Source: an uncultured Eubacteriales bacterium
Lineage (GTDB): Bacteria > Bacillota > Clostridia > Lachnospirales > CAMVHY01
Direction of reading: 5' to 3'
DNA: 64,000 nt
NCBI GenBank assembly: GCA_948543815.1
Contig: CAOVHW010000001.1
Span: 138,413 to 202,412 of the forward strand
In this document: positions 1-54,352 of the stretch, piece after piece
Layout: each line of letters starts with the position of its first letter
Position numbering within the stretch: position 1 is the stretch's first letter
Translations under genes and position numbers: made by a program
Notes under the pieces: model-generated
What the model was told of the DNA's origin: nothing
Seen by the model: the letters and a program-made list of their open reading frames with translations, nothing else
Database searches by the model: none

Positions 1-569
1 CTGAATTATTTTTAAATGTCGTAGTAACAATGATAGCCGCATTTTTTTTCGTTAAAGATAAAATTTTGATACGAGAATTTTGCCAACATATTGTACCAAA
101 AAAAATTTTAGTTACATTTGGGCAATTAAAAAAAGGATGCCTACAAGGATTAATCGCTTATATTAAAGCTGAATTTATAATGATGAGTGTTACGGCTGCT
201 ATATGTACGATTGGTTTTTGCATTATAAAATATCCATACGCATTATTCTTAGGATTGGTAAGTGCAATTGTCGACGCACTTCCAATTTTCGGAACTGGAT
301 TTATTATTTGGCCATGGGCCGCTTATTGTTTTTTAAATGAAAATTTTAATCGCGCAATTATTTTACTTATAACATATTTATCAACGCGAATGATGCGTCA
401 TATTCTTTCGCCAAAACTTATTGGAAAACAAATTGGTGTTCATCCATTATTAATGCTCGCTGCAATTTATATCGGCTTGAAAATTTTTGGATTACTTGGT
501 GTAATTTTCGGCCCGATTATGATTATCACTGGAAAAATTATTTTGGAAGATTATTCAAAGAAAAATTAA
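1..569 (+). CDS. AI-2E (UPF0118/PerM) family membrane protein, YtvI-like; 5' end lies upstream of the window
   Basis: The frame is open from base 3 to TAA 567-569. Hydrophobic helices plus family-typical segments DALPIFGTG, SPKLIGKQIGVHPL and GLLGVIFGP. Confidence 0.7.
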   Translation, partial: ELFLNVVVTMIAAFFFVKDKILIREFCQHIVPKKILVTFGQLKKGCLQGLIAYIKAEFIMMSVTAAICTIGFCIIKYPYALFLGLVSAIVDALPIFGTGFIIWPWAAYCFLNENFNRAIILLITYLSTRMMRHILSPKLIGKQIGVHPLLMLAAIYIGLKIFGLLGVIFGPIMIITGKIILEDYSKKN

Positions 570-594
570 ATTGAAGAATAAAAACGTAACACGC

Positions 595-623
595 TTGACA
601 TAATATTAAAATATTATTACAAT
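595..623 (+). promoter_or_regulatory. Sigma-A type promoter, leader cassette copy 1
   Basis: TTGACA 595-600, 17-nt spacer, TACAAT 618-623, then AAGGAG 639-644. A near-identical block recurs at 2064-2092 and 4232-4260. Confidence 0.6.
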
Positions 624-653
624 AATAATATTATGCGCAAGGAGATGATTGTG

Positions 654-1859
654 ATGGCGAACGAAAATTTTAATTTAGAAAATCTTTTAAATGGTTTTTC
701 TAACCAAAATTTTGAAAATTACCAAGAGTTTGTTGATGAATCAGATGAATCAGATGAATCAACTCAAGATGAAGACTTCCAAGAATTTTTTAGTGAATTA
801 GACGAACCAACTTAAGATAAAATAACTAATATTTTAGAGAATTTACCGAATATAGAAGGTTATATCGAAAGGTTTAAAAATAGTTTAACAGAATGTTATA
901 GATTGATGCCGTTTAATATGTATAGTAATGGGGTATTTTCTGAGGATATTGATATAATTATTGCTGGAGAGCTTATTTTGATAGAGTTACGAAATAGAGG
1001 ATATATTTCTCCTGAGGAGTCTAATAGATTAAGTCAAATTATAAACGAATTGTTAAATAATGATCTATCTAATACAAGAAATAATAATGCAAAAGAATTT
1101 ATTGATTTTTTGAAAGAAAATTTTAATAATGATTCGCTAATAAAAGATAATTCTTTTCTTTTTGAGGTAGGAGAAAAGCTCTTAGAAAAAAATTCTTCAG
1201 AAATTTTAGAAGATAGGCTTAATTATATTTTAAAAATTTTAAAAGAAAGCCAACCCAACCAATATAATCAAGTTTTAAAAATTCTAAATGATGCAAAATT
1301 AAAAGAGAGATATGAAGAATTTAGAAATGCTTTAATAGAAATTTATGAAAGAGATGAAATAAACGGAACTGAAATTTTTGCTAAAGTTCTTGATGGGATT
1401 ACTGATAGAGGTGTAGAACAAATCGAAGATATTTTGTCCCTTATTGATGAAGGTGAAAAAGGAAAGCATGAAGAACAGGAAACTTTTATATCAGATGATG
1501 AAAATCCAAATGAATTAAATGAAGATTCTGATAGTGATTTTTTTCAAATATTAATGGCTCGAGAAGATATTACCGTAAGCGATATTAAGAGATTAAAGCA
1601 AGTTATTGTGAAATTAAGCCCTGACGAAGTAGTAAAATTGGTTGATGATTTAAAAAAAAATGTTGAAAGTAACGCGCCAAGGAAAAAAATCATTTCACTT
1701 ATTAAAACTGCAGAAAATTATTTAGAAGGGAAAGCACCAAATAGGCCACAGCAACCGATTAAAAAAAGACGTGAGCCTAAAAAGCCACAAATATTTTATA
1801 AAATAACTAACAAATCAAATAAGTTGAAAGCGCAGCGTAAAGGGAAAATGGTCAAGTAA
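654..1859 (+). pseudogene. Modular-repeat orphan protein, paralog 1, split by a single in-frame TAA (813-815)
   Basis: Track ORFs 633-815 and 903-1859 are in the same frame with only one stop between them. The read-through text ...FFSELDEPT*DKITNILENLP... parallels paralog 2 ...FFSKLDEPTQEKIIYILENL.... The SD AAGGAG favours a GTG 651 / ATG 654 start over ATG 633. Confidence 0.6.
735..761 (+). repeat. 3 x 9-bp perfect tandem repeat GATGAATCA (encodes DES-DES-DES)
   Basis: Read directly: gatgaatca gatgaatca gatgaatca, in frame within paralog 1. Confidence 0.9.
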
Positions 1860-1940
1860 TTTAAAACATAAAAAGATAGCTAAAAGTATGCGATAAAAAT
1901 AATTTTTAAAATCAAAATTTATACTAATTTGTCATAAATT

Positions 1941-2039
1941 TATATCGGGTTGAAAATTTTCGGATTAATTTCGATAGTTTTTAGCTTAATTATTATTACA
2001 GAGAAAATTATTTTGGAGGATTATTCAAAGAAAAATTAA
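1941..2039 (+). pseudogene. Relic copy of the last 32 codons of the YtvI-like gene (duplication scar)
   Basis: Translates in frame as YIGLKIFGLISIVFSLIIITEKIILEDYSKKN*, against the genuine 3' end YIGLKIFGLLGVIFGPIMIITGKIILEDYSKKN* at 468-569. No upstream coding body. Confidence 0.75.
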
Positions 2040-2063
2040 ATTGAGAATAAAAACGTAACATAC

Positions 2064-2092
2064 TTGACATAATATTAAAACATTGTTACAAT
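2064..2092 (+). promoter_or_regulatory. Sigma-A type promoter, leader cassette copy 2
   Basis: TTGACA 2064-2069, 17-nt spacer, TACAAT 2087-2092, followed by AAGGAGATGATTGTGATGG exactly as in copy 1. Confidence 0.6.
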
Positions 2093-2122
2093 AATGATAT
2101 TATGTACAAGGAGATGATTGTG

Positions 2123-4159
2123 ATGGCCAAGGGAAATATTAATTTAGCAAATCGTTTGAATGATTTTAAGGATCGTATACCAAATTTTGAAAAATTTAAC
2201 GAGATTTTTAATGAATTAGATGTGGACAGAAAAACTGATATAATTAATATTTTAGAAAATTTACCTAATAGGAGATATGTAGGGAAAATTACGGATGAGA
2301 TAATGCAATATTGTAGAACAGCAGATGAAACTGAAGATGGTTTCTTTACCGTAGACATAAAACTGGATATAGTTATTGAGAGAGAAATTTTATTACAGAA
2401 GTTAAATTCAAAAGGTATTGCAGAAATAGACTGCAACCAATTGAGGCAATATATAAATTATTTGGAGAATAAAGAGGCATTTAAAGTTATTAACAATTTA
2501 AGTAAAAGTTTAGATAATAGCCAATTAAGTAATAAAGTTTTTTCTACAATCGAGAAATTAAAAAAAAATATTGAAATGGTACATATAAATCGTTTAAATA
2601 ATTTTAAGGATCGCATACCAAATTTTGAAATATTCCGAAAGTTTTTTAGTAAATTAGATGAACCAACTCAAGAAAAAATAATTTATATTTTAGAGAATTT
2701 GCATAATAATAAATCTGCAAGTGAAATTACGGATAAGATAATGCAATATTGTAGAATAGTAAATGAATGTGACGATGATTTCTTTACTTTTTTAAACATA
2801 AAACACTATATAGATTTTGATATAGAGATTTTGTTAAATAAACTAATTTCAAGAGGTATTGAAAAAACGGACTGTTACCAATTGAGGTACTATATGAAGT
2901 GTTTGAATAATAAAGAGGCAAATAGAGTTATTGAAAATTTAAACAAAAATTTAAATAATAAACGATTAAGCAATATAGTTTCTTCTACAATCAAGGAACT
3001 TGAAAAAAATATTATAAAGCGTTTAAATAATTTTAAGAATCGCATACCAAATTTTGAAGAATTTAAAGAGATTTTTAATGGATTAGATGTGAAAAGAAAA
3101 AGTAATATAATTAATATTTTAGAATGTTTGTGTGGTAGGGGATATGTAAGTAAAATTGCGGATGAGATAATGCAAAATTGTAGAAAAGCAGATAAAGATG
3201 GTTCCTTTACTATAGACCCAAATCTGGATATAGTTATTGATAGAGAGGTTTTGTTAAATGAAATATTTTTTAAAGGTGTTATTAATAAAAAATACTCCAA
3301 CCTATTGATAAAATATATGAATGCTTTGGTTTTGACTAATAAAGGGCTAAATAAAGCTATTAAAAAATTAAACGAAGATTTATATAATGACAAATTACGC
3401 TATACAATTTTTTCTATAATCCAAAAAAGCCAAAAATCAGTTATAATAACTCTTTTAAACAATTTTAAGGATGACATACCAGATTTTGAAAAAGTTAAAG
3501 ATATTGTTGATAAATTAAATATATCAACCAAAGAAAGATTAATTGAAATTTTAATTCAGCCACTTAAACAAAGATATTTCAAAAATTTTGTAACTGAATT
3601 AATAAAGTTGTATGAAGAAAGCAACATGGAAAGATTTTATATAGTTATTGACAGAGAAATTTTGTTACAACGATTACGTGATCGAGAAGACTTTACACAC
3701 GATGAGCGTAAAAGGTTTAGTCAAGTTATAAATACACTAAGTAATGAGTCTGCAAAATTATTTATTGAAGATATAAAAAGTATTTTAAGCAGTAGAACAC
3801 AAAAAGAAGTAATTCTTGAAAGAATTAATGATGGGGAAAATAAGATAGAAGAAGAAAAAGATAATTTTTGTAGAGAATTAAAGAAGAAAGCTGATATTAC
3901 CGTAAGCGATACTAAACAAATAAGGAAAGTTATAGATGGTTTACCTTATGATGAATGGGACAAATCTTGTAATGCTTTGAGAGAGAATGCATTAAATGGT
4001 AAGTCAAGAAGAGAAATCCCTTCGCTTATTAATGTAAAAGAGACAAACAATTCAAATAATCCACTTCAGAAAGTTGACCAAGCAAATAAGTCAAAAATGC
4101 CGCATAAAAAGAAAATTGCTCAAATGATTTCAAAACGCTCAAAGGAAGATATACTATAA
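2123..4159 (+). CDS. Modular-repeat orphan protein, paralog 2 (four ~144-aa modules plus a C-terminal tail)
   Basis: Long ORF. The module start LN(D/N)FK(D/N)RIPNFE recurs at nt 2153, 2591, 3020 and 3452. The SD supports ATG 2123 (track start 2102 lies in the leader). No signal peptide or TM segment. Confidence 0.8.
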   Translation: MAKGNINLANRLNDFKDRIPNFEKFNEIFNELDVDRKTDIINILENLPNRRYVGKITDEIMQYCRTADETEDGFFTVDIKLDIVIEREILLQKLNSKGIAEIDCNQLRQYINYLENKEAFKVINNLSKSLDNSQLSNKVFSTIEKLKKNIEMVHINRLNNFKDRIPNFEIFRKFFSKLDEPTQEKIIYILENLHNNKSASEITDKIMQYCRIVNECDDDFFTFLNIKHYIDFDIEILLNKLISRGIEKTDCYQLRYYMKCLNNKEANRVIENLNKNLNNKRLSNIVSSTIKELEKNIIKRLNNFKNRIPNFEEFKEIFNGLDVKRKSNIINILECLCGRGYVSKIADEIMQNCRKADKDGSFTIDPNLDIVIDREVLLNEIFFKGVINKKYSNLLIKYMNALVLTNKGLNKAIKKLNEDLYNDKLRYTIFSIIQKSQKSVIITLLNNFKDDIPDFEKVKDIVDKLNISTKERLIEILIQPLKQRYFKNFVTELIKLYEESNMERFYIVIDREILLQRLRDREDFTHDERKRFSQVINTLSNESAKLFIEDIKSILSSRTQKEVILERINDGENKIEEEKDNFCRELKKKADITVSDTKQIRKVIDGLPYDEWDKSCNALRENALNGKSRREIPSLINVKETNNSNNPLQKVDQANKSKMPHKKKIAQMISKRSKEDIL

Positions 4160-4171
4160 AAATAATTTTCA

Positions 4172-4199
4172 AAATCAAATCTTTGAATTTGATTTTTTT
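4172..4199 (+). terminator. Intrinsic terminator after paralog 2
   Basis: AAATCAAAT-CTTTGA-ATTTGATTT hairpin followed by a T-run. Nearly the same hairpin follows paralog 3. Confidence 0.65.
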
Positions 4200-4231
4200 G
4201 TAAAAATTAAGGAGATAAAAAAGTAACAAAC

Positions 4232-4260
4232 TTGATATAATATTAAAATGATGTTACAAT
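4232..4260 (+). promoter_or_regulatory. Sigma-A type promoter, leader cassette copy 3
   Basis: TTGATA 4232-4237, 17-nt spacer, TACAAT 4255-4260, then GAGGAGATGATTATTATGG. Confidence 0.55.
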
Positions 4261-4290
4261 AATAATATTAAATTTGAGGAGATGATTATT

Positions 4291-4884
4291 ATGGAAACTG
4301 GACAACATTTAATTGTAGATTGGCAAAACAAATTGAAATATATTTTGACTTCAGCGGGTTATGAAAAATATTGGCCAGAAATAAATGATATTTTACAAAG
4401 TTTAGATTCACAAAGGAAAGAAAAATTAATGAATTTTTTATCGGTTAGTGAAGGTGTTATAGGAGGATTTAAATCAGCAGATTTATCAACTGTGTTAAAT
4501 GTTTTTAAAAAATTAAATTTTAATTATAGAATAGGATTAATTGATGTTTTAAACAATGGGGATAATGGTAAACAATTAAATCTTTACGAACAAGGAGACT
4601 TAATTAATGTTTTAGATAGATTAGATGAAACTGACAAATGCAATTTGATTAATGTTTTATATCAATCAAGTTTAGATAAAAAAAAGGAATACATTAGTCA
4701 ATTAAATAGGATTGGAAATGAACAGTCAAAATTAAAAGAATCAATTAATTCTATTAATGTGGGTTTTTATAAAACACAACAGGAATCTAAGGAGATGCAA
4801 CGACCAATTCAACTGGTAAATCAAAATAATTCTCAAAGTAAAAATGAAAATTATAAAAAGCAGCAGCCGCAAACTAATAGGTAA
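4291..4884 (+). CDS. Orphan protein, paralog 3 (short, divergent member of the array)
   Basis: Shares the leader cassette and LD...K..LIN(V/I)L-type segments (ILQSLDSQRKEKLMNFL, VLDRLDETDKCNLINVL). N/Q-rich tail. Confidence 0.7.
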   Translation: METGQHLIVDWQNKLKYILTSAGYEKYWPEINDILQSLDSQRKEKLMNFLSVSEGVIGGFKSADLSTVLNVFKKLNFNYRIGLIDVLNNGDNGKQLNLYEQGDLINVLDRLDETDKCNLINVLYQSSLDKKKEYISQLNRIGNEQSKLKESINSINVGFYKTQQESKEMQRPIQLVNQNNSQSKNENYKKQQPQTNR

Positions 4885-4911
4885 TCTCTACAGCAAACTT
4901 AAAAAAATTTG

Positions 4912-4939
4912 AAATCAAATCTTCGGATTTGATTTTTTT
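4912..4939 (+). terminator. Intrinsic terminator after paralog 3
   Basis: AAATCAAATC-TTCG-GATTTGATTT hairpin plus a T-run. Confidence 0.65.
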
Positions 4940-4998
4940 GTTGTAAAAATGCGGATGATTTTGATAATCTAATAATAAAATTATTTTTTGAGGTTAAG

Positions 4999-9205: not shown

Positions 9206-9220
9206 AATAAAAAAGAAAAA

Positions 9221-9340
9221 CCGTTCTTTTTTTTGAAAAAAAAAGAACCAAAAAAAACTTTAATATAAAAATCTTTACGCATTCGCGTAAAGATTTTTTG
9301 TTAAAGTTCTTTTGTTACTTTTCTTACAAGAAAAGTAAGG
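9221..9340. repeat. Composite three-hairpin intergenic element, copy A (order H1-H2-H3)
   Basis: H1 GTTCTTTTTTTTGAAAAAAAAAGAAC 9223-9248. H2 ATCTTTACGC-ATTC-GCGTAAAGAT 9271-9294. Linker TTGTTAAAGTTCTT. H3 TTACTTTTCTT-ACAA-GAAAAGTAA 9315-9338. Lies between convergent prfB and glgB. Confidence 0.8.
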
Positions 9341-9355
9341 TTTTAAAATTTATTT

Positions 9356-15260: not shown

Positions 15261-15956
15261 TTGAACAAATTTATTCGAACCGAGCTGTTAATTGGCAAAA
15301 AAAATATGGAGCTGCTGAAAAACAGCTCCATTATTATATTTGGAATTGGCGGCGTCGGTTCATATGTTGCCGAAGCACTTGTGCGCTGTCAAATCTCCAA
15401 CCTTACATTCGTAGACAATGACAAAATTGATGTGAGCAACATAAATCGTCATATTTGTGCAAATGTAAATACTGTTGGGCAATTTAAAATTGATGTGATG
15501 AAGCGACGTGTGCTGGAAATAAATCCTGACGCAAAAGTTACGGTTATAAATAAATTTGTCAATGCCGAAAATATTTTTGAGATATTTGATAAAAATTTTA
15601 CTTATGCCGTTGATGCGGTAGATACTGTTTCGTCAAAAATTCAAATCATTCTTACGGCAAAAAAATTAAAAATCCCCATAATAAGCTGTATGGGGACGGG
15701 AAATAAAATTAATCCGTTGTCGCTAAAACTTGATGATATTTATAAAACTAAATATTGTCCGCTTGCGAAAATTATGCGGCGTGAATTAAAAAAATATGGC
15801 GTGAAAAGTTTACAAGTTTGCTATTCAACCGAGCAGCCTAAAAAAATTTTTACTTCAGAAAAAAAATTAATTTCTAGCATATCTTTTGTTCCATCCGTTG
15901 CCGGACTCTTTATCGCTTCAGCAATTGTAAATCAAATAATTGATTATGAAACATAA
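15261..15956 (+). CDS. tcdA: tRNA threonylcarbamoyladenosine dehydratase (ThiF/MoeB-like E1 fold)
   Basis: IIFGIGGVGSYVAEALVRCQISNLTFVDNDKIDVSNINRH nucleotide-binding motif. ~230 aa. Confidence 0.8.
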   Translation: MNKFIRTELLIGKKNMELLKNSSIIIFGIGGVGSYVAEALVRCQISNLTFVDNDKIDVSNINRHICANVNTVGQFKIDVMKRRVLEINPDAKVTVINKFVNAENIFEIFDKNFTYAVDAVDTVSSKIQIILTAKKLKIPIISCMGTGNKINPLSLKLDDIYKTKYCPLAKIMRRELKKYGVKSLQVCYSTEQPKKIFTSEKKLISSISFVPSVAGLFIASAIVNQIIDYET

Positions 15957-15960
15957 ATTC

Positions 15961-16096
15961 TTTTTTTTCTTGAAAGAAAAGAAATAAAAGAACTTTAACA
16001 AAAGAACTTCGCGGTACGCGAAATTTTTTATAAAGTTTTTTCATGAAACAGCTTCGAAGAAGCTGATTATGCGTTCTTTTTTTATAAAAAAAACGG
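15961..16096. repeat. Composite intergenic element, copy B (inverted order, extra hairpin)
   Basis: TTTCTTGAAAGAAA hairpin, linker AAAAGAACTTTAACAAAAG, central TTCGCG-GTA-CGCGAA hairpin, extra CAGCTTC-GAA-GAAGCTG hairpin, then H1-type CGTTCTTTTTTTATAAAAAAAACG. Lies between convergent tcdA and sigG. Confidence 0.7.
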
Positions 16097-16112
16097 TTTT
16101 AAAGTTATTTAA

Positions 16113-24240: not shown

Positions 24241-24258
24241 TAAATTTACTAAATAAAA

Positions 24259-24390
24259 CCTTACTTTTCTTGAAAGAAAAGTAACCAAAAGAACTTTAAC
24301 AAAAAAATCTTTGCGTGCAATACGCAAAGATTTTTTTATGAAGTTTCTTATTTTGTTTTACTTTTTTCTTTTCAAAGAAAAAAGTAAAGG
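24259..24390. repeat. Composite intergenic element, copy C (inverted order; ~73 nt near-identical to the reverse complement of copy E)
   Basis: CCTTACTTTTCTTGAAAGAAAAGTAACCAAAAGAACTTTAACAAAAAAATCTTTGCGTGCAATACGCAAAGAT, then TTTATGAAGTTTCTT and a second H3-like hairpin TTTACTTTTTTCTTTTCAAAGAAAAAAGTAAA. Confidence 0.85.
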
Positions 24391-24423
24391 TCTTAAATTA
24401 TAGGGGAAAGATTTTTTTTGGCA

Positions 24424-24744
24424 TTAAATTGCATTATGAGTAAAGCTTGCAATTTTACATATCGGAATTTCTGTTACTGAGCCTAACCAATTATTGTTGC
24501 AATTATAATTTCCAGAACAATTATTATTCCAAAATCCAAATGGGTTATATCGAAATCTACATGTGTTCCCTATTGGACATGATGGTGCCGCACCAATTCG
24601 TGTGATTAATTTGATATTATTATCGCAGACTCCTGCTAAAACTCCTGTAAATCCTGAGCCTGATAATCCACCGCTAGTTGTAAAGATCGTAACAGTTTGA
24701 CCGATATACCTTAGTAAATTATCTAATGCAAAACTTTCTGACAT
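24424..24744 (-). CDS. Small Cys/Asn/Gly-rich protein, paralog A of a divergent pair (function unknown)
   Basis: AGGAGGG SD before ATG 24744. Shares YIGQTVTIFTTSGGLSG.GFTGVL, PSCP.G, LGSV..IPIC.IA.FTHNAI with 24911-25228. Confidence 0.75.
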   Translation of the reverse strand: MSESFALDNLLRYIGQTVTIFTTSGGLSGSGFTGVLAGVCDNNIKLITRIGAAPSCPIGNTCRFRYNPFGFWNNNCSGNYNCNNNWLGSVTEIPICKIASFTHNAI

Positions 24745-24819
24745 TTCTATCCCTCCTTTCATATTTTTTTTAGTAATTCATTTTGAATTACTAGTACATT
24801 TTATGGAATTTTATTTTAA

Positions 24820-24910: not shown

Positions 24911-25228
24911 ATGCCTGCATTAATTGAAAATATGTATCGCTATATCGGACAGACTGTTACTATTTTTACTACAAGTGGTGGATTATCCGGCAGAGGTTTT
25001 ACTGGTGTCCTATTATCCGTCGATAATAACAATGTTAGATTATTATGTAACGTTGGCGCATCACCATCTTGTCCACTTGGTAGTGCATGTACAAATCGTA
25101 TGAATTCTTACGGTACGATACAAAATAATTTCTTCTTCGGTAATAATAATTTTAATGGGAACCCACTTGGTTCCGTCGCAATTATTCCTATTTGTTCAAT
25201 TGCATGCTTTACTCATAATGCAATATAG
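24911..25228 (+). CDS. Small Cys/Asn/Gly-rich protein, paralog B of the divergent pair
   Basis: GGAGGTG SD. See paralog A; the identical C-terminal FTHNAI is followed by a terminator. Confidence 0.75.
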   Translation: MPALIENMYRYIGQTVTIFTTSGGLSGRGFTGVLLSVDNNNVRLLCNVGASPSCPLGSACTNRMNSYGTIQNNFFFGNNNFNGNPLGSVAIIPICSIACFTHNAI

Positions 25229-25233
25229 AAAGA

Positions 25234-25262
25234 AAAAAATCCGTACATACGGATTTTTTTTT
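25234..25262 (+). terminator. Intrinsic terminator
   Basis: AAATCCGT-ACAT-ACGGATTT plus a T-run. Confidence 0.75.
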
Positions 25263-29295: not shown

Positions 29296-32200
29296 ATGAA
29301 AAATTCTAATTGGGAAAACTTGCTTGGTGAGGCTAACACAAAAAAAATTAAAGATGCCGGGTTAGATAAACTTGTCGATGTTTCTGAACTGACGCCAGAA
29401 AATTTGGAATACGCGCAAGATTTCTTTGATAATTTTGATGTTGAAAATGTGTCAGATTATCTTGGCGATGAATTTACTTTTTTAGATGTTGTGAAAAAAT
29501 TTTATGATTGCCAATTGCCATTGGATGTAGTTTCATATGGAATGCAGCGTAAAATAATTTTGGATCGCCGTTTCTCATTTGATGTGAAAAAAAAAATTGT
29601 TGATGTTTTAAATTCGTTGGAAGAAATTAATTATGTCCAAAAATTTTGGAAATTGTTAGATTTACTAAAAACTGATGACGAATTTTTGAACGCAGAATTT
29701 TATTTTAAAGAAATTGTTTCATCAGACAAGTTATATGAAGAAATTTTAAATGACAAAAAAAATTTACCATCTGCGGTCAATATTGTCAAATATAATATGC
29801 ATAATTTCAAAAATGAGTTGAGTTTCGACAATCTCGATTGGATTGTTGATGTCTTAATGATTTTACCCGTTGAATCGCAAAATATTGTACGTATTTGGAT
29901 TAATCGTGTTAAATCAGATGATGAATGTAAAAAATTGCAGTCATTGCTAGTTTCAATTATAGATTGTCAAAAGTTGACGGATGATATTTCTTATAAAAAA
30001 TGTTCAGTTTCTGAGGCCATAGAAATTTATAATGATATAAAATCAAAAGTTCATAATAAAAATTTATCATCAAAAAATTTGAATAGCGCTTTTAGTTTGA
30101 TTTTAACTTTGAGTGAAGACGAAAATTTTGATGAAAAAAGCTTGAAAACTGTTGTCAAATTAATTTCACTGATTCGTGATGATTATGAATTTGAGCAGTC
30201 AAAAATTTTTATAAATTTAATTTCTGCTTTCGATACCTTGCCAGATATTTTGACTAAAAATAATTTTACATTAATTGAAGTTTTGCCTGTCATGCTTAAA
30301 ATTTATTTTATGAACGCTGGAAGTATTTTGAAAAAAAATTTTAATTTCGATAATGTCCGTGAAGTTGTCAAAATCCTTGAAAGATGTAACAAAGATGATA
30401 GCCAAATAAACAACGTTTTGGAACTTGTTAACAAAATTCAATCGAATGAAGAGTTTGATTACTGTAAAGATTCTTTGTTTAAATTGGCTAAAAATAAAAA
30501 AATGATGCGTGAAATTCAAAACAACAAAATTTCTTTACATGATCAAGTAAAAAAAATGTATATAGAATATTTTCGTGTTTCGTCCGCGAGTTCATACACT
30601 ATTGAAATTATAAAGTTGCATAAATTTAGTTTCAAAATTATTAAGCAAATGGATAGGCTTATATCTGAGCGGCCGGCAGTTTTACGTAGAGTCATTACGA
30701 ATTTGATTTTGAAGTTAAGCAACGATAATGAATTTAGATTTGCAAAAGAATTTTTGTGTACAAATGATTCGTTTGAATCATATGAGCAATCAAATGACAT
30801 TTTGTCGGATATAATTGATTATTATAAATCGTTGTTGCATATAACATTTGACGATAAAAATGAATTGAATATTGTTCATAACACTAATTTGAGTTTTGAA
30901 AATTTAGCTGATGCAATAAACTTAATATCAAGCGAAAAACAAGCTGATAAGGCAAGTAAACTTTCCGCTTTAGTGTCAATGATTTCTGATGATAATGAAT
31001 ATAAAATTTTACGGCCGTTTTTTTATAAATTAATTGATATTAACAAAATTTTTGAACAAAAAACTAAAATTTTATCTGTGTTTTTTGATATGCTTCATGA
31101 TTTGGCGGAAAAATTAAATGTCAGAAAAATTTTTAATAACAGATTTTTGAGCTTACACTGTAAGTCAAAAGCTTTGGATTTTTTGAAAGAAATTGATGAC
31201 AATGAACAACGTGACCGTATCGCAAATTTGATTTGTATTATTAAAAGCGATGATGATTACGACAAAATTTCATCCTATTTCAATAAATTAATGTTGGCCG
31301 AAAATCTTTCATCTGTGATTTTTAATAGTTCAATAAATGTAAATCAAATTATACAAATTTGTAATTTGGGTATCGATAAAGTTTGGCTTAAAAATGTTAT
31401 AAGTTTTGACAGGTTGAAAAAATTAGCAACTTATCTCGTTAAATTAGATGAAGAAATGTCAAATTTACTTATTGATTTTATTTATATGCTTGAAAGTAAT
31501 GAGGAATTTGATAATATTTTCCCGCATATTGATGATTTATTGAATGATAAAAGAATTTTACAGGCCGTTAAAAATGTTGAAATTTCAATAAATGAAATCG
31601 TCAATTTATATAGTTTGGGCGCCGGAAAAATTTTTGCAAACAAAAAAATCAATTTTATTACGATTAGTCAATTAGAAAAAATTTTAAGCAAAATTACTGA
31701 AAAAGAAAAATTTGATTTTGTAATGAACATTGCAACAAATTTGACTGATAAAGAATTTTCTTATATGAAAGAATTTTTGATATCGGGTAATGTTGAATCG
31801 TCAAATAAATCTTACTTAGAACTTGCACGTGATTTTTATGTTAAAAAATTAGGTGTGCGTTACGCTAAGAAAAATAAAGAAATTTTTTTGCAAATATTAA
31901 AATTGGCTGGAAGCTACAAATTTTCGTATGATACTCTTGATCAAATGTCAAAAGCTTTAAGCGATAATAAAAATGAAAAATCACGTATCGCTTTATTTGA
32001 AAAATTTTTGCAGCTGAAAGACGATGATGATTTTGCAAAAAATTCTTCTCAACTTGATGACTTACAAGTCGAAAATAATGAAGTTGTCAAAGAAAGTTTT
32101 AGTATGCGTATGAAAAAAGCTGAAAAAAATGCTGAAAGCTTTAACAATGACCTTGATTCAGGTTCAGGTGGTAATAATAGTTCGTCATTAGTCTTTGACG

Positions 32201-32553
32201 ATGGTAATTTAGTTGTGAATGTTATCGATGTCAATGCAATTTTGCAATTTAAGGACAAAAAAATTGTTATCATGACGAGTGAAAAAAATACTACTTTGGA
32301 TAAAACTACGCGTGGGAAATTTACGACGCTTTCAATTAAAATAAACGAAGAAATTGACAAGAATCTTAATCTTTTTGAAGACCCACAAGATTATTTTGAT
32401 GAATTTATGGATTATTTAAATGAACATGGGGATTCAGCTTCACTTGAAGATGACCAAGATGATGGTGAAACTTATTGTTGTTTGATAACGTCAAAAAGTT
32501 TGGATGAAATTATTACTGAGCACGAAAATTTTATTGCCGAAATTTCTTCCTAA
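29296..32553 (+). CDS. Large orphan repeat protein (1085 aa; ~11 degenerate ~87-aa repeats)
   Basis: Uninterrupted ORF 18 nt after tkt. The motif h-h-x-[ST]-[DN]-[DNE]-x-E-[FY] recurs at about aa 130, 211, 278, 299, 387, 480, 569, 655, 738, 821 and 913. No signal peptide or TM segment. I recognise no known domain. Confidence 0.8.
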   Translation: MKNSNWENLLGEANTKKIKDAGLDKLVDVSELTPENLEYAQDFFDNFDVENVSDYLGDEFTFLDVVKKFYDCQLPLDVVSYGMQRKIILDRRFSFDVKKKIVDVLNSLEEINYVQKFWKLLDLLKTDDEFLNAEFYFKEIVSSDKLYEEILNDKKNLPSAVNIVKYNMHNFKNELSFDNLDWIVDVLMILPVESQNIVRIWINRVKSDDECKKLQSLLVSIIDCQKLTDDISYKKCSVSEAIEIYNDIKSKVHNKNLSSKNLNSAFSLILTLSEDENFDEKSLKTVVKLISLIRDDYEFEQSKIFINLISAFDTLPDILTKNNFTLIEVLPVMLKIYFMNAGSILKKNFNFDNVREVVKILERCNKDDSQINNVLELVNKIQSNEEFDYCKDSLFKLAKNKKMMREIQNNKISLHDQVKKMYIEYFRVSSASSYTIEIIKLHKFSFKIIKQMDRLISERPAVLRRVITNLILKLSNDNEFRFAKEFLCTNDSFESYEQSNDILSDIIDYYKSLLHITFDDKNELNIVHNTNLSFENLADAINLISSEKQADKASKLSALVSMISDDNEYKILRPFFYKLIDINKIFEQKTKILSVFFDMLHDLAEKLNVRKIFNNRFLSLHCKSKALDFLKEIDDNEQRDRIANLICIIKSDDDYDKISSYFNKLMLAENLSSVIFNSSINVNQIIQICNLGIDKVWLKNVISFDRLKKLATYLVKLDEEMSNLLIDFIYMLESNEEFDNIFPHIDDLLNDKRILQAVKNVEISINEIVNLYSLGAGKIFANKKINFITISQLEKILSKITEKEKFDFVMNIATNLTDKEFSYMKEFLISGNVESSNKSYLELARDFYVKKLGVRYAKKNKEIFLQILKLAGSYKFSYDTLDQMSKALSDNKNEKSRIALFEKFLQLKDDDDFAKNSSQLDDLQVENNEVVKESFSMRMKKAEKNAESFNNDLDSGSGGNNSSSLVFDDGNLVVNVIDVNAILQFKDKKIVIMTSEKNTTLDKTTRGKFTTLSIKINEEIDKNLNLFEDPQDYFDEFMDYLNEHGDSASLEDDQDDGETYCCLITSKSLDEIITEHENFIAEISS

Positions 32554-32555
32554 TA

Positions 32556-32612
32556 AAAAAGAACTTTATCAAAAAAATTGCGAGTGCAGTTTTTTTAGTT
32601 AAAGTTCTTTTT
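32556..32612. repeat. Intergenic element, copy D (minimal long-arm hairpin; bidirectional terminator)
   Basis: AAAAAGAACTTTATCAAAAAAA ... TTTTTTAGTTAAAGTTCTTTTT. The arms carry the family core AAGAACTTTA-CAAAA / TTTT-GTTAAAGTTCTT. Confidence 0.7.
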
Positions 32613-41699: not shown

Positions 41700-42053
41700 A
41701 TGCAAGCAATAATAAAACAAATTGAGAGTGAGCAGTTAAAACCAAATATCAAAACTTTTAACGTTGGTGATACTGTAAAAGTTCACGCAAAAATTATTGA
41801 GGGTACGAAAGAACGTATCCAAGTTTTTGAGGGAACCGTTATCCGTTTCCAAAATGGTGGCTTGAACGAAGTCTTTACCGTTCGTAAAATCTCTTCAGGT
41901 ATTGGCGTTGAAAAAACTTGGCCGCTTCATTCTCCTAAAATTGTTAAAATTGATGTCGTACGTCGTGGAATAGTTCGCCGTGCAAAACTTTTTTACTTAC
42001 GCAATCGTGTTGGTAAAGCTGCAAAAGTTAAAGAAGCTATTAATAAAAAATAA
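41700..42053 (+). CDS. rplS: 50S ribosomal protein L19
   Basis: [46 protein letters not shown] before ATG 41700. Confidence 0.96.
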
Positions 42054-42075
42054 AAAAAGACTTTAAAAAACAAAA

Positions 42076-42195
42076 TCGTTCTTTTTTTATAAAAAAAGAA
42101 CCAAAAAAATTTTATAAAAAAATCTTTGCGTATTGTACGCAAAGATTTTTTTTGTTAAAGTTCTTTTGGTTACTTTTCTTTCAAGAAAAGTAAGG
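42076..42195. repeat. Composite three-hairpin intergenic element, copy E (order H1-H2-H3)
   Basis: H1 GTTCTTTTTTTATAAAAAAAGAAC 42078-42101. H2 ATCTTTGCGTA-TTG-TACGCAAAGAT 42122-42146. Linker TTGTTAAAGTTCTT. H3 TTACTTTTCTTTCAAGAAAAGTAA 42170-42193. Confidence 0.85.
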
Positions 42196-42197
42196 TT

Positions 42198-43151
42198 TTA
42201 ACTTAATATATGAACTTTTATTTGGCGGCGTCCAAATTTTTTTGCATCATACAAACTTTCATAAAACAAATCAATTTTATTTCCTTTAATTGCGCCGCCG
42301 GTATCGAGTGCTGTCGCATAGCCATAACCTTCGATGAATAATTTACTGCCGAGTGGAATAACTTTTGGGTCAACAGCAACGACACCACGCCGAGCTTTTG
42401 CACCGGTTGCTGTTATGCCGTAACCTTTATCGCCGGGTCTTTTGCCAGTACTTTCGAAACCGGCGGTATATGCACTGGCGTTCATTATCAAAACATTTTT
42501 ACAAGTTCCTCTAGTAATTATTTTTTCGATTGGCTTTTTTATTATTGTTTCATTTTTAGTACGTGAAATTTCATCGTTACCGCTAAAAATTATTTCTTCT
42601 GTAATTAATTTTTCACCGTTGATACCATTTTGTACAATTTGTTCAACATTTTCCAATAATTTATCGGAATAAATAATTTTAGTTTCGAACGGAATTATTT
42701 CAGTTTTTTCAATTAATTCGGTACGCTGTGAATAAAATTTTAATTCGTGGCAATTTCGTAATTTAAAATCATTATTTTGTGCGCATGTAAATTCTTTATC
42801 AAATTCTTTTTGCAAAACTTTTAGGAAATCGCTGACGGTATCATTAAACTTGACATTAAAAATTTTTTCTTTATCGTCAACGAGAACTTTTAAGATAAAA
42901 GGGCGTTCGATTTCGATATTCATTCCATTGAAGATTTGGTCATTCATTTTTTTATTTACGAAATCATTTTTAGAGATGAAAATATTATTTTGCGTAAAGA
43001 ATTCTTTAACGGTTTCGGAGTCAGTTGAAAAATTTGTAATAATTCCGTTATCGATGACAGAGATATTTTTATAGTTCAAAGCTTCGGCTTTACTGCTGAA
43101 TAAAAAGATGAGAAGTAGCATGCAAAATAGCAAAAAAAATTTTTTAAACAT
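42198..43151 (-). CDS. Secreted DUF348-G5-3D domain protein (YabE-like cell-wall-binding/lytic-transglycosylase-like)
   Basis: Signal peptide. G5-like segment (IIPFETKIIYSDKL...GINGEK...). C-terminal 3D domain (VAVDPKVIPLGSKLFIEGYGYATALDTGGAIKGNKIDLF). Confidence 0.8.
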   Translation of the reverse strand: MFKKFFLLFCMLLLIFLFSSKAEALNYKNISVIDNGIITNFSTDSETVKEFFTQNNIFISKNDFVNKKMNDQIFNGMNIEIERPFILKVLVDDKEKIFNVKFNDTVSDFLKVLQKEFDKEFTCAQNNDFKLRNCHELKFYSQRTELIEKTEIIPFETKIIYSDKLLENVEQIVQNGINGEKLITEEIIFSGNDEISRTKNETIIKKPIEKIITRGTCKNVLIMNASAYTAGFESTGKRPGDKGYGITATGAKARRGVVAVDPKVIPLGSKLFIEGYGYATALDTGGAIKGNKIDLFYESLYDAKKFGRRQIKVHILS

Positions 43152-46022: not shown

Positions 46023-47990
46023 ATGGAAGATCAAATGATAAATCTGGAAGAACAAATGTCCAATTGGCAAAATGTTATTGATGAAATGAAGCGTTCGGAA
46101 AATTTCAACGAAAGTATAGTATTACAAGACAAAGATGAATCTAAATTTACATTTAAAAAAATTGGTGATGATCTTAAATCTAATGCTGGATTTGATCAAG
46201 TAATTCATCCAACACAAATAAGCATAAAAGAGCAAGAAGCAAATATGAATGCATTACTAGACAAAGTTCTTGAATTTAAAAAACAATATTTTGAAGATTT
46301 TGTAAGTCGACATAAAAGTAAGTATCCTAATGCTAATGTTGAACTAACGATGCAAGATATGCTCTTGCAAAAATATACAAGAGCAGTTATGAGTGATGCA
46401 CATGGCGATTTATTTTCATTATTGTCTGCATTATGTACAATTGGATTTGTAAATGTATCAAAAAATCATTTTTTATATTTTAATTTAACAACAAAGCAAT
46501 TTGTAAAAAGAGAAGAATGCTACCGAATATTTACAGAAAAAATGGAAAAAGAATTTGGAACTCCCTTTTTTGTTGATATTTTTTTGGAACATGCAGAATC
46601 TTTTTTTTGTATTATTAATGATAAAAATGAAAAAATGACGAAAAAAATTGAATTATTGAATAAATACATAAGAGAAAAAAATATATCAAATTTGAGTATT
46701 AGTGCAAATAATGATGTGATAAATTTTAATTTTGCAAAAATTACCATACAAGTCAATAAAATTGTTAAAAAATTCGTTTTATTTGGTTCTGATGAGAAAC
46801 AAAAATTTATTATAAATATAAGTAAAAAAAAATATTGTATAAATGTAATTTTTGATGTTAATAAAAATGAATATATATATAAGCTAAAGCAATGTTTTAC
46901 AGAATGGAAAAACAATTTTCTGAAAGAATTTTTTAGTAAAAATATTAATTCAATTTTTTATGTTATACCAATGTTATCTATAAATCCAATTGCTCTTGAG
47001 GCTCCGGAGCTTTTTGGAAAATTTATTGATTTGGGAGATTGTATTGACAGGGGGTCTGAAACTGTAGCCTGTCTTGTAACTTATGCACTTTTATCAAAGG
47101 CGATGCCTGATTCAATAAAATGTATGCTTGGTAATCATGAAGCTATGCAATCAATGCTTAGATGTGACGATGGTAATTGTTTTTTAGATTTTATTAATTT
47201 TTGTATTGAAAATCAATTGCTAAAACCGGGATATATTGAATCCAATAAAATTGGGGATAAAACAATTTGGCGCTCATATTCACATACAATACTTACAAAA
47301 AAGCATTTGCCAAAACTATTTACTCTTTTAGTTATATCGTCATTTATAGCATCAATGAATGAAGAAGTTGTAGAAGTAGAAAAAATATCTGAGAATACAC
47401 AAATAATAATTAAATCATTTAAAAATTGCTCAAAGAGAGACTTTGATCCTTTAAAACGGCATTTAAGAAACAAATGGCCCGAAATATTTAATAATTTAAG
47501 CGAAGAATTGCGAAATAAATTAAAGAATTTTTTTAAAGATGAAGATTTAACAAAATTGCTTTTGAAATTTTTCATAGTTAATAATAAGGGCAAAACAATT
47601 TTTTATCAGGAATGGCAAAGTTTTTATTCAAAATTAATGGAGTTTGGGTTTACGAATAATGAATTTTTTGAATTGAAATTTGCTATGTGTAGTATTTTTT
47701 ATAATGAATATTATAAAACTGCCAATATTATTTGGAAAAATGTTTTTTTGGGTTTAGCCGAAGAAGATGCAAGATTTATGGGTTGGCTTTTTGGTGAAAG
47801 ATATGTTCCAGAAAATAAATGTGAGCTTTTTGATGATGTAATACAATATCTTGGTCATGATCACGCAAATTTCATATTAATGCCAGAAAACTTAGGCGGT
47901 CTTGTAATATATTTAGATACTTGTAGGAGCGCGGGGTATAGGACGGATAAAGAAGGATTGAATAATGAATCAAGATTAAATTTACTTTAA
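46023..47990 (+). CDS. Orphan 655-aa protein with split PPP/calcineurin-like metallophosphatase motifs
   Basis: SDAHGD (aa 124-129, nt 46392-46409), GDCIDRG (aa 338-344, nt 47034-), GNHE (aa 370-373, nt 47130-), GHDH (aa 611-614, nt 47853-), LDT near the C-terminus. The order is canonical but the motif I-II spacing is ~214 aa instead of ~25-30. Confidence 0.75.
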   Translation: MEDQMINLEEQMSNWQNVIDEMKRSENFNESIVLQDKDESKFTFKKIGDDLKSNAGFDQVIHPTQISIKEQEANMNALLDKVLEFKKQYFEDFVSRHKSKYPNANVELTMQDMLLQKYTRAVMSDAHGDLFSLLSALCTIGFVNVSKNHFLYFNLTTKQFVKREECYRIFTEKMEKEFGTPFFVDIFLEHAESFFCIINDKNEKMTKKIELLNKYIREKNISNLSISANNDVINFNFAKITIQVNKIVKKFVLFGSDEKQKFIINISKKKYCINVIFDVNKNEYIYKLKQCFTEWKNNFLKEFFSKNINSIFYVIPMLSINPIALEAPELFGKFIDLGDCIDRGSETVACLVTYALLSKAMPDSIKCMLGNHEAMQSMLRCDDGNCFLDFINFCIENQLLKPGYIESNKIGDKTIWRSYSHTILTKKHLPKLFTLLVISSFIASMNEEVVEVEKISENTQIIIKSFKNCSKRDFDPLKRHLRNKWPEIFNNLSEELRNKLKNFFKDEDLTKLLLKFFIVNNKGKTIFYQEWQSFYSKLMEFGFTNNEFFELKFAMCSIFYNEYYKTANIIWKNVFLGLAEEDARFMGWLFGERYVPENKCELFDDVIQYLGHDHANFILMPENLGGLVIYLDTCRSAGYRTDKEGLNNESRLNLL

Positions 47991-54304: not shown

Positions 54305-54352
54305 CTGTTCTTTTTTTGAAAAAAAAGAACCAAAAAAACTTTAGCAAAAATA
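54305..54352. repeat. Intergenic element, copy F (H1 plus left linker only), followed by two GC-rich hairpins (54355-54400)
   Basis: GTTCTTTTTTTGAAAAAAAAGAACCAAAAAAACTTTAGCAAAAA matches the left half of copy A. Then CAAGGGA-TGAA-ATCCCTTG and TTGGG-TAGAG-CCCAA. Confidence 0.65.

Follow-up and report, generated by a model that had tools for sequence, protein, structure and literature searches.

A shared block in two inverted intergenic elements

Why do two intergenic spacers that lie 18 kb apart, between unrelated genes, carry almost the same non-coding sequence in opposite orientations? The question arises in a 64,000-nucleotide stretch of DNA from an uncultured Eubacteriales bacterium (contig CAOVHW010000001.1, positions 138,413 to 202,412), referred to here as the window, in which one copy of a palindromic element, copy C, occupies 24254-24396 (+ strand) and another, copy E, occupies 42071-42200 (- strand). 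The original prediction, made by eye from the letters, was that 24259-24331 equals the reverse complement of 42122-42195 save for one base and one A in a homopolymer, and that this likeness reflects recent copying rather than the independent evolution of two terminators. The identity was confirmed, and we consider it probable that C and E are copies of a dispersed, modular family of palindromic repeats, comparable to REP sequences (repetitive extragenic palindromes) and bacterial interspersed mosaic elements (BIMEs) or to the BOX elements. The claim that the copying was recent stands in part.

Direct reading and a MAFFT alignment agree that 85 of 87 aligned positions are identical between C (24254-24339, + strand) and E (42200-42114, - strand), so the shared block is slightly longer than had been read by eye and its identity just as high. 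One of the two differences is G24317 in C against an A at 42136 (- strand) in E, at the top of the central hairpin; the other is a run of seven A residues in C (24301-24307) against eight in E (42146-42153). Repeat finding recovered a perfect inverted repeat of 54 nt within the block (24254-24307 and 42147-42200). Because no chance match is expected for 25-mers of the first hairpin (H1) and the central hairpin (100 dinucleotide-preserving shuffles), chance can be ruled out as the source of the identity. According to the predicted folds this G/A site closes the loop, with a G.U pair in C and an A-U pair in E, and the base pair is thus retained in both copies.

The two copies are built from the same succession of parts. 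Copy C consists of TAAAACC, H1, a tag with arm 1, the central hairpin, arm 2, a third hairpin (H3) and GGTCTT. Its H1 (24261-24284, + strand; TTAC-CTTTTCTTGAAAGAAAAG-GTAA) has a constant 7-bp top on a variable 4-bp foot and is followed by the tag and arm 1, CCAAAAGAACTTTAACAAAAAAA (24285-24307, + strand), which includes the near-invariant AAAGAACTTTAAC and the A7 tract. The central hairpin, TCTTTGCGT-GCAAT-ACGCAAAGA (24308-24330, + strand), has a 9-bp stem with four G-C pairs between A7 and T7 and resembles the core of a bidirectional terminator. The T7 tract and a diverged arm 2 (TTTTTTTATGAAGTTTCTTATTTTG) occupy 24331-24356 (+ strand), and H3, an inverted and diverged H1-like hairpin, occupies 24357-24388 (+ strand). 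In copy E, H1 (42170-42193, - strand) is identical to that of C, the central hairpin (TCTTTGCGT-ACAAT-ACGCAAAGA, 42123-42145, - strand) is flanked by A8 and T7, and H3 (42078-42101, - strand; GTTCTTTTTTTATAAAAAAAGAAC) is a degenerate inverted unit unlike the H3 of C. The diverged second arm and second hairpin that had been described for C are present at 24340-24394 and make the whole copy a long imperfect palindrome, predicted to fold into three hairpins at -47.5 kcal/mol (z = -9.6).

Past the shared block the copies diverge, and their right arms are identical at only 37 of 60 positions. The right arm of C is closer to those of other copies, with 56/60 identities to one at another locus of the same species (L019; L numbers designate loci and contigs used for comparison) and 54/62 to E2, a second element found at the E locus of some strains (see below). 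Since the right arms differ while the left arm and centre agree, C is a mosaic, with a left arm and centre of E type and a right arm of another type, and C, E and E2 would form a young sub-lineage with one central hairpin. The original prediction had offered mobility or gene conversion as the route of copying. The match of the right arm of C to other copies favours partial exchange or gene conversion, and transposition of a whole unit fits less well.

A family of modular palindromes

Looking for further copies, as had been advised, by repeat finding, motif search and an nhmmer profile brought up at least six members of the family in the window (A-F), all at gene 3' ends, and some 12 others at further loci of this species (L016, L019, L035 with two, L037 with two, L043, L044, L089, L122). 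Three copies lie within 8 kb of a mouse-gut 'Christensenella sp.' metagenome-assembled genome (MAG; L045) and one in a Firmicutes MAG (L117). C and E remain the closest pair among 16 independent copies in a pairwise matrix of the left arm and centre (96%, against 66-89%).

The building block of the family is a unit of about 40 nt, an 11-bp hairpin with a 4-nt loop in which a constant top, CTTTTCTTGAAAGAAAAG, stands on a 4-bp covarying foot, with the tag CAAAAGAAC(TTT) after it. Full elements are inverted doublets, each made up of a unit, a central hairpin and a degenerate inverted unit, with the G+C core of the central hairpin between A7 and T7. Its oriented order is TAAAACC, H1 (foot-CTTTTCTTGAAAGAAAAG-foot'), CCAAAAGAACTTTAACAAAAAAA, central hairpin, TTTTTTATAAAGTTTTTTTGG, H3 and GGTTTT. 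RNA of either strand is predicted to fold as a closed three-hairpin junction (z = -8 to -9.6). Each of the four foot positions of the unit hairpin is paired in 63-79 of 84 units, against at most 51-65 in shuffles; every foot position uses all four Watson-Crick pair types, and pairing ends abruptly at position five. G.T pairs are scarce in the foot (about 5 of 298 paired cells). The element also has a polarity, in that the family profile reaches 108 bits on one strand but only 45 bits on the other (nhmmer), and none of the four full copies of the window has a mismatch in the tag arm AAAGAACTTTAAC, against 2-4 mismatches in the partner arm. Two other readings of the unit were rejected. A small peptide (LFLKEK..KEL*) fails as the window copies keep neither its frame nor its stop and as the foot of the stem covaries, and for a purine-motif triplex between tag and stem the geometry allows no linker.

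Around this plan the modules are interchangeable. The central hairpin occurs in two subfamilies, TCTTTG..CAAAGA in A, C, E and most other copies and GAACTTCGC..GCGAAGTTC in B, L035a and L045a-c. H3 likewise exists in two kinds. Kind 1, found in E, is GTTCTTTTTTT..AAAAAAAGAAC and, with its arm, amounts to an inverted H1 and tag degenerated by C-to-T and G-to-A changes; kind 2, found in C, is TTTACTTTTTTCTTT..AAAGAAAAAAGTAAA. An optional mini-hairpin of about 30 nt (CATGAA-stem-loop-stem-TTATG) lies between an outer hairpin and its arm in B, L035a/b, L016, E2 and the L003 version of C. We located it at 16042-16071 of the window, at L003:10645-10672 and L252:4239-4269, and also in L016 and L035; its stem covaries, and the module is gained or lost within elements, in either arm, invariably between the outer hairpin and the AAAGAAC motif.

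This family leaves little room for the opposite of copying, namely that C and E are two independently evolved, convergent bidirectional terminators, which we regard as extremely improbable. Both copies do lie between convergent genes and have the expected shape of a stem with A and T tracts, but their 54-nt perfect match, for which no chance matches are expected, spans loops and unpaired spacers. The sequence recurs at many loci and in several genomes, and conservation of loops and unpaired tags across the family, outside the stems, refutes an independent origin. The original prediction of copying is borne out in this respect, also by the position of C and E as the closest pair and by the strain-specific presence of E2.

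Strain comparison, age and turnover

For comparison among strains we used public MAG contigs that match the window, with identities taken per locus. These are 100% for L002, L005 and L006, 98.3% for L004, about 97% for L252-L254, 94.3% for L003 (a 126,332-bp contig, CANEHT010000002.1) and 93-96.6% for L001. A 20.6-kb stretch of assembly GCA_948506575.1, of the same species, is 100% identical to the window. Across the C orthologues in L001, L003 and L004 and the E orthologue in L252 the shared block has a single substitution, and the flanks differ by 1.7-6%. The first 54-58 nt or so of the block are the family consensus and are identical also in L122, an unrelated locus of another strain. From these observations the identity of C and E is partly a product of constraint or homogenisation and not of recency alone. 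Every strain examined shows the same G/A difference between C and E, and the split between the two copies thus predates the divergence of these strains. Of the claim of recent copying, copying and turnover within the species are supported; recency is tempered by the consensus character of the first 54-58 nt, the stability of the block and a G/A split older than the strains, and the likeness is confined to the left arm and centre.

Turnover is seen at both loci. At locus C, L001 lacks the H3 module (a 53-nt indel with an altered arm) and L003 has gained the mini-hairpin, here 28 nt. At locus E, L252-L254 contain an additional 228-nt segment that holds E2, for which the window represents the 'empty' state; as E2 occurs in strains of about 97% identity and is absent from the window, copies are gained or lost within the species. 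E2 has the C version of the central hairpin (G) and a right arm of the C kind, and it matches C at 85 of 87 positions of the left arm and centre, beside the 54 of 62 in the right arm. Direct repeats, for which a search had been suggested, are lacking as short target-site duplications at A-E. The polymorphic E2 segment, in contrast, is flanked by a 29-nt direct repeat, identical at 28 of 29 positions (L252:4097-4125 and 4325-4353; window 42025-42053), which consists of the last nine codons of rplS and the first base of its stop codon. As this repeat is not a target duplication of the transposase type, the rearrangement fits recombinational duplication or deletion. The repeat contains CTTTAAC, a heptamer also present in the element tag, and this microhomology might have guided the rearrangement.

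The strain contigs all run colinear with the window, and an inversion of the 17.8 kb that separate C from E was therefore rejected. In Logan, short-read contigs that cover the E locus stop inside H1, as does one contig of a related species (contigs ending exactly within H1 are L007-L011, L128 and L129), which is the behaviour expected of a multi-copy repeat.

Position at gene ends and a terminator-like centre

The window has a G+C content of about 31% and uses the standard genetic code, and its host is a spore-forming gut Clostridia bacterium; SigG, a MecA-like adaptor, GlgB, PrfB, SecA, SepF, RNase III, L19 and other housekeeping proteins are encoded. Full copies all take up the spacer between two gene ends, -5 to +27 nt away from the stop codon on either side, and all five full or core copies (A-E) sit between convergent genes. 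Copy C lies between the mecA-like gene (stop codon 24238-24240) and a convergent gene for a 112-aa protein (ends 24424). The TAA of copy E at 42198-42200 is the native stop codon of a G5/3D-domain gene, and its other end is 17 nt from the rplS stop codon (42053). The genes around C and E are unrelated, as had been noted. Copy A (9216-9346, - strand) is a full element between prfB (stop codon 9203-9205) and glgB (ends 9356). Copy B (15954-16101, + strand), also full, belongs to the second subfamily (central CTTCGCG..CGCGAAA) and carries an extra mini-hairpin, CATGAAACAGCTTCGAAGAAGCTGATTATG; it begins on the TAA stop codon of a tcdA/ThiF-like gene, with sigG as the convergent gene. In both E and B the overlap with the native stop codon leaves protein length unchanged, for the G5/3D protein as judged against its homologues. 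Copy D (32555-32612, without assigned strand) is reduced to a core of arm 1, a small central hairpin and arm 2, which form a long hairpin flanked by A and T tracts between a gene for a 1085-aa protein and a MATE transporter gene. Copy F (54307-54345, + strand) is a half element, a degenerate unit GTTCTTTTTTTGAAAAAAAAGAAC with CAAAAAAACTTTAGC, between two genes on the - strand.

In C and E a stem with four G-C pairs and a U-tract on either strand separates convergent genes, which is the shape of a bidirectional terminator. As the elements take up nearly all of the spacer, each convergent gene meets a unit hairpin within 0-30 nt of its stop codon, after which come the shared stem and U-tract. 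From this order we infer that the elements probably act as bidirectional intrinsic terminators with flanking 3'-end hairpins. The likeness to a bidirectional intrinsic terminator extends to the G+C-cored stem, the upstream A-tract, the downstream T-tract and the location in a convergent-gene spacer. Unlike ordinary terminators, however, the family has loops, spacers and flanking hairpins in common across loci and genomes, and the hairpin is one module of a copied element. In all 5 tandem-gene contexts the conserved unit lies antisense to the direction of transcription, and the genes that adjoin the elements share no functional theme.

Distribution of the unit

The unit occurs in many metagenome contigs. 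To avoid ascertainment bias on the tag, a metagenome scan was made with only the 18-nt hairpin top. It gave at least 127 matches; among the matches listed, 94 then have (C)AAAAGAACTT within a few bases, and contigs of 31-62% G+C, whose flanking genes are unrelated, have the same 18-mer and tag. In the contig of 62% G+C (L135), whose HtpG has its nearest relatives in proteins named Eubacteriales, Clostridia and Christensenellaceae, units stand in tandem (4.6 copies, 76-nt period, two alternating variants) directly after the htpG stop codon (L135:6521-6884). In relatives whose HtpG is 83-85% identical, three loci of 22 kb each are free of the unit, and htpG is followed there by an ordinary terminator. 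Similarly, in relatives with 62-74% identical MecA or G5/3D proteins the corresponding gene ends have plain terminators or no spacer; the element is absent from the roughly 43 kb of these relatives, one of which has the unit elsewhere. Such patchiness is typical of invasive repeats.

At 19 units, in 15 distinct contexts, the stop codon of a long open reading frame (ORF) ends exactly where the stem begins. Frames ending at a TGA or TAG inside the unit (offsets +14 and +25) were not used for this count, as they may be spurious and owe their stop to an A+T-rich insert. With a stricter pattern, units turned up only in family-bearing loci (CANEHT01, L045, L117) among about 807 kb of genome-scan loci. 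A scan of genome collections with AAAGAACTTTAACAAAA gave mostly chance matches among the matches listed, and a loose scan for any hairpin followed by AAAAGAAC was abandoned, as unrelated genomes gave equally many matches as family loci. Clustering of the ORFs beside units, in search of an associated gene, was uninformative because spurious ORFs in G+C-rich contigs dominated the result.

In G+C-rich hosts (L142, L171, L174, L176, L207, L209, L247, L248; contigs from the human gut and other sources) a second conserved hairpin, such as GTGCGAAACTTCGTTTCGCC, comes after the unit, and next to it stands a recurrent terminator hairpin, GGGAGCGAC..GTCGCTCCC, with a T-run. These loci look as if they carry a different composite element built on the same unit.

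Comparison with known repeats and rival explanations

We regard the family as a new REP/BIME- or BOX-like small interspersed palindromic repeat with a built-in terminator-like centre, and not as a canonical REP. As with the REP, BIME and REPIN (inverted REP doublet) repeats of Proteobacteria, there are single, doublet and tandem forms and mosaics with other motifs at the 3' ends of transcription units; the differences are the Gram-positive Clostridia host and a doublet that encloses a terminator-like hairpin between an A-tract and a T-tract. BOX elements are intergenic repeats of Firmicutes with modules in the order boxA-boxB(n)-boxC and extensive predicted secondary structure; they are co-transcribed with their neighbours, occur in few related species and turn over slowly from strain to strain, and no transposase dedicated to them is known (Croucher et al., 2011, PMC3049150). 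BOX, and also RUP and SPRITE, thus resemble the present family in being modular, strongly structured and limited in distribution, and in turning over slowly with no transposase known. The unit, by contrast, is far wider across Clostridia, abuts stop codons and is part of a near-palindrome on a terminator-like hairpin, and we found no sequence relationship to BOX, with which no direct comparison was made.

We propose that copies would spread and reshuffle by duplication and by recombination between copies, with gene-conversion-like exchange of modules, and that a cut-and-paste transposase leaving short duplications would take no part. Several observations weigh against our reading of the family, its terminator role included. 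We saw no mobilising gene, and no transposase domain (including Y1), among the ORFs of the window or in the annotated flanks of the examined loci. The terminal inverted repeats are inconsistent beyond AAAACC/GGTTTT, inspection revealed no short target-site duplications around A-E, and the copy counts cover the 64-kb window and sampled loci rather than a whole genome. A simple, consensus-based terminator scanner calls neither C nor E, likely because the stem it considers takes in A7/T7, so that no T tail remains. Between strains the 87-nt block varies far less than its flanks, which may mean a host function under selection; the identity of C and E could then have arisen without recent copying. 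Finally, simple decay of a palindrome, or pairing alone, leaves the better conservation of the tag arm over its partner unexplained. This asymmetry suggests that some factor reads the tag as a sequence.

A rival explanation is a REPIN mobilised by a REP-associated tyrosine transposase (RAYT). Here the unit would be the site of a single-copy HUH/Y1 tyrosine transposase that copies inverted doublets through single-stranded DNA, in the manner suggested for REP/REPIN elements. The architecture matches, with many extragenic copies of a hairpin (stem 11 bp and loop 4 nt, within the 7-20 bp and 2-5 nt of REPs) that has a tag at its foot, inverted doublets (A, B, C, E) and the tandem array of L135, and the near-absence of G.T pairs in the foot fits a structure required on both DNA strands. 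Proteins of the Y1/RAYT group are reported in Clostridia (PMC5581495, PMC6006769). REPs, however, are short extragenic hairpins with GT[AG]G 0-2 nt 5' of the foot (PMC6006769), a motif missing from the unit, where the tag CAAAAGAAC lies 3' of the hairpin and reads as GTTCTTTTG 5' of it on the other strand. REPs are also described as species-specific (PMC6006769), and the unit is the same in hosts of 31% to 62% G+C. Given in addition that no Y1 domain came up in the loci searched and that the single polymorphic insertion has a 29-nt direct repeat, we judge this explanation somewhat unlikely. A classical MITE (miniature transposable element with inverted repeats), that is, a non-autonomous deletion derivative of an insertion sequence (IS) moved in trans, with terminal inverted repeats and a short target duplication, is more doubtful still. 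It would fit the size (125-160 bp), the palindromic shape, the short inverted termini TAAAACC/GGTTTTA, the presence/absence polymorphism between strains and the patchy occurrence among related species. The termini, though, are only 6-7 nt and vary between copies, and a consistent, fixed-length short target duplication is seen neither at A-E nor around E2. The copies are mosaics of interchangeable modules rather than decayed versions of one master, single units and tandem arrays exist without terminal repeats, and no parent IS was seen in the examined loci. A BLAST search of plasmid and phage collections with the unit consensus gave no match, to which the low-complexity filter may contribute.

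The slow evolution of the block instead raises the alternative of a cis-acting RNA element of the host, a signal in the 3' untranslated region for a conserved Clostridial protein or RNase (for example in 3'-end protection or coupling to translation termination), whose copies are alike through purifying selection and not through recent copying. Units that begin exactly after the stop codons of long ORFs, copies E and B that overlap native stop codons with protein length unaffected, and an unpaired tag and loop conserved across hosts of very different G+C content all speak for it. On the other hand, close relatives of unit-bearing genomes are without the unit over 22-30 kb and end the same genes with plain terminators, no theme unites the genes served, the unit is antisense in all five tandem-gene contexts, and tandem arrays and strain-polymorphic copies resemble repeat dynamics. 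At the gathering threshold, Rfam 15 returned only tRNAs and one SAM riboswitch, none overlapping the elements, for the window and 20 unit-bearing loci, and E-value searches of Rfam with copies C and A gave no family, the sub-threshold matches being generic hairpins. We therefore think this alternative unlikely, less so than a MITE and more so than a RAYT-driven REPIN.

Two further systems were compared. Uptake sequences of Neisseria and Pasteurellaceae (DNA uptake sequences, DUS, and uptake signal sequences, USS) reportedly occur as inverted pairs that form terminators, as Kingsford et al. are said to have described in 2007. They resemble the family as a conserved oligonucleotide whose inverted pairs give stem-loops downstream of genes; in the family, however, the conserved motif lies beside the terminator stem and does not form it, and one arm is much better conserved. 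We know of no evidence of sequence-specific DNA uptake in Clostridia. Integron cassettes stand in same-orientation arrays with an integrase and attC core sites RYYYAAC / GTTRRRY. This reading was rejected, as the flanks are convergent housekeeping genes (prfB, glgB, sigG, mecA, rplS) and CTTTAAC and GTTAAAG are off the core consensus on inspection. A literature search by sequence with four diagnostic oligonucleotides returned only unrelated papers.

The dispersed repeat family remains our preferred reading, and beside it we advance a more tentative proposal about the unit itself. The unit, NNTN-CTTTTCTTGAAAGAAAAG-NANN-CAAAAGAAC, may be the cis-site of an undescribed system across Clostridia, of which the window elements would be the doublet form with a built-in terminator; we hold this possible rather than likely. 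In contrast to REPs, this site is shared by several genera of 31-62% G+C. The factor acting at such a site could be a domesticated single-stranded DNA enzyme of the HUH type, or an RNA-binding or termination factor that reads the hairpin and tag after stop codons.

Other features of the window

Next to copy C, the genes at 24424-24762 (- strand, 112 aa) and 24911-25228 (+ strand, 105 aa) encode divergent Gly/Cys/Asn-rich paralogues, 62% identical, whose 3' ends explain a further inverted repeat (I3; 24413-24483 and 25169-25239). The 112-aa protein has no NCBIfam match, and neither small gene has a Pfam match on record in the strain loci. The product of the gene beside copy D (29296-32553, + strand, 1085 aa), which differs in length by 1-2 residues among strains, and that of 46023-47990 (+ strand, 655 aa) have no NCBIfam or Pfam match. 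A cluster of paralogous genes without Pfam match occupies 530-4300, in which the ORF at 2102-4159 has internal repeats of about 430 nt (families D1-D7). A conserved upstream block of about 80 nt recurs at 578-657, 2047-2126 and 4215-4294, with a promoter-like TTGACA..TACAAT and a GGAGATGATTGTGATGG start region. Two simple terminator-like hairpins at 4161-4201 and 4901-4941 (AAATCAAATCTT..GATTTGATTTTTTTGT) share 83% identity; both are placed downstream of paralogous genes that neighbour each other, and neither is related to the palindromic family.

Significance

Small palindromic repeats are well studied in Proteobacteria (REP, BIME and REPIN) and in pneumococci (BOX, RUP and SPRITE), and much less so in the gut Clostridia that dominate metagenomes. 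In the window the present family makes up most of the convergent-gene spacers, and its copies vary between strains of about 97% identity. It breaks short-read assemblies exactly at the first hairpin, a practical problem for MAG contiguity. A unit that is conserved across very different base compositions and often starts at a stop codon is unusual for REP-like repeats and suggests a conserved factor that recognises it. This wide, patchy, stop-codon-abutting and sequence-conserved unit is the most interesting lead. If confirmed, the family would open a way to study how transcription terminates and 3' ends form in uncultured Clostridia, and it would also supply a strain-typing marker and a candidate for a new repeat-mobilising system in Gram-positive bacteria.

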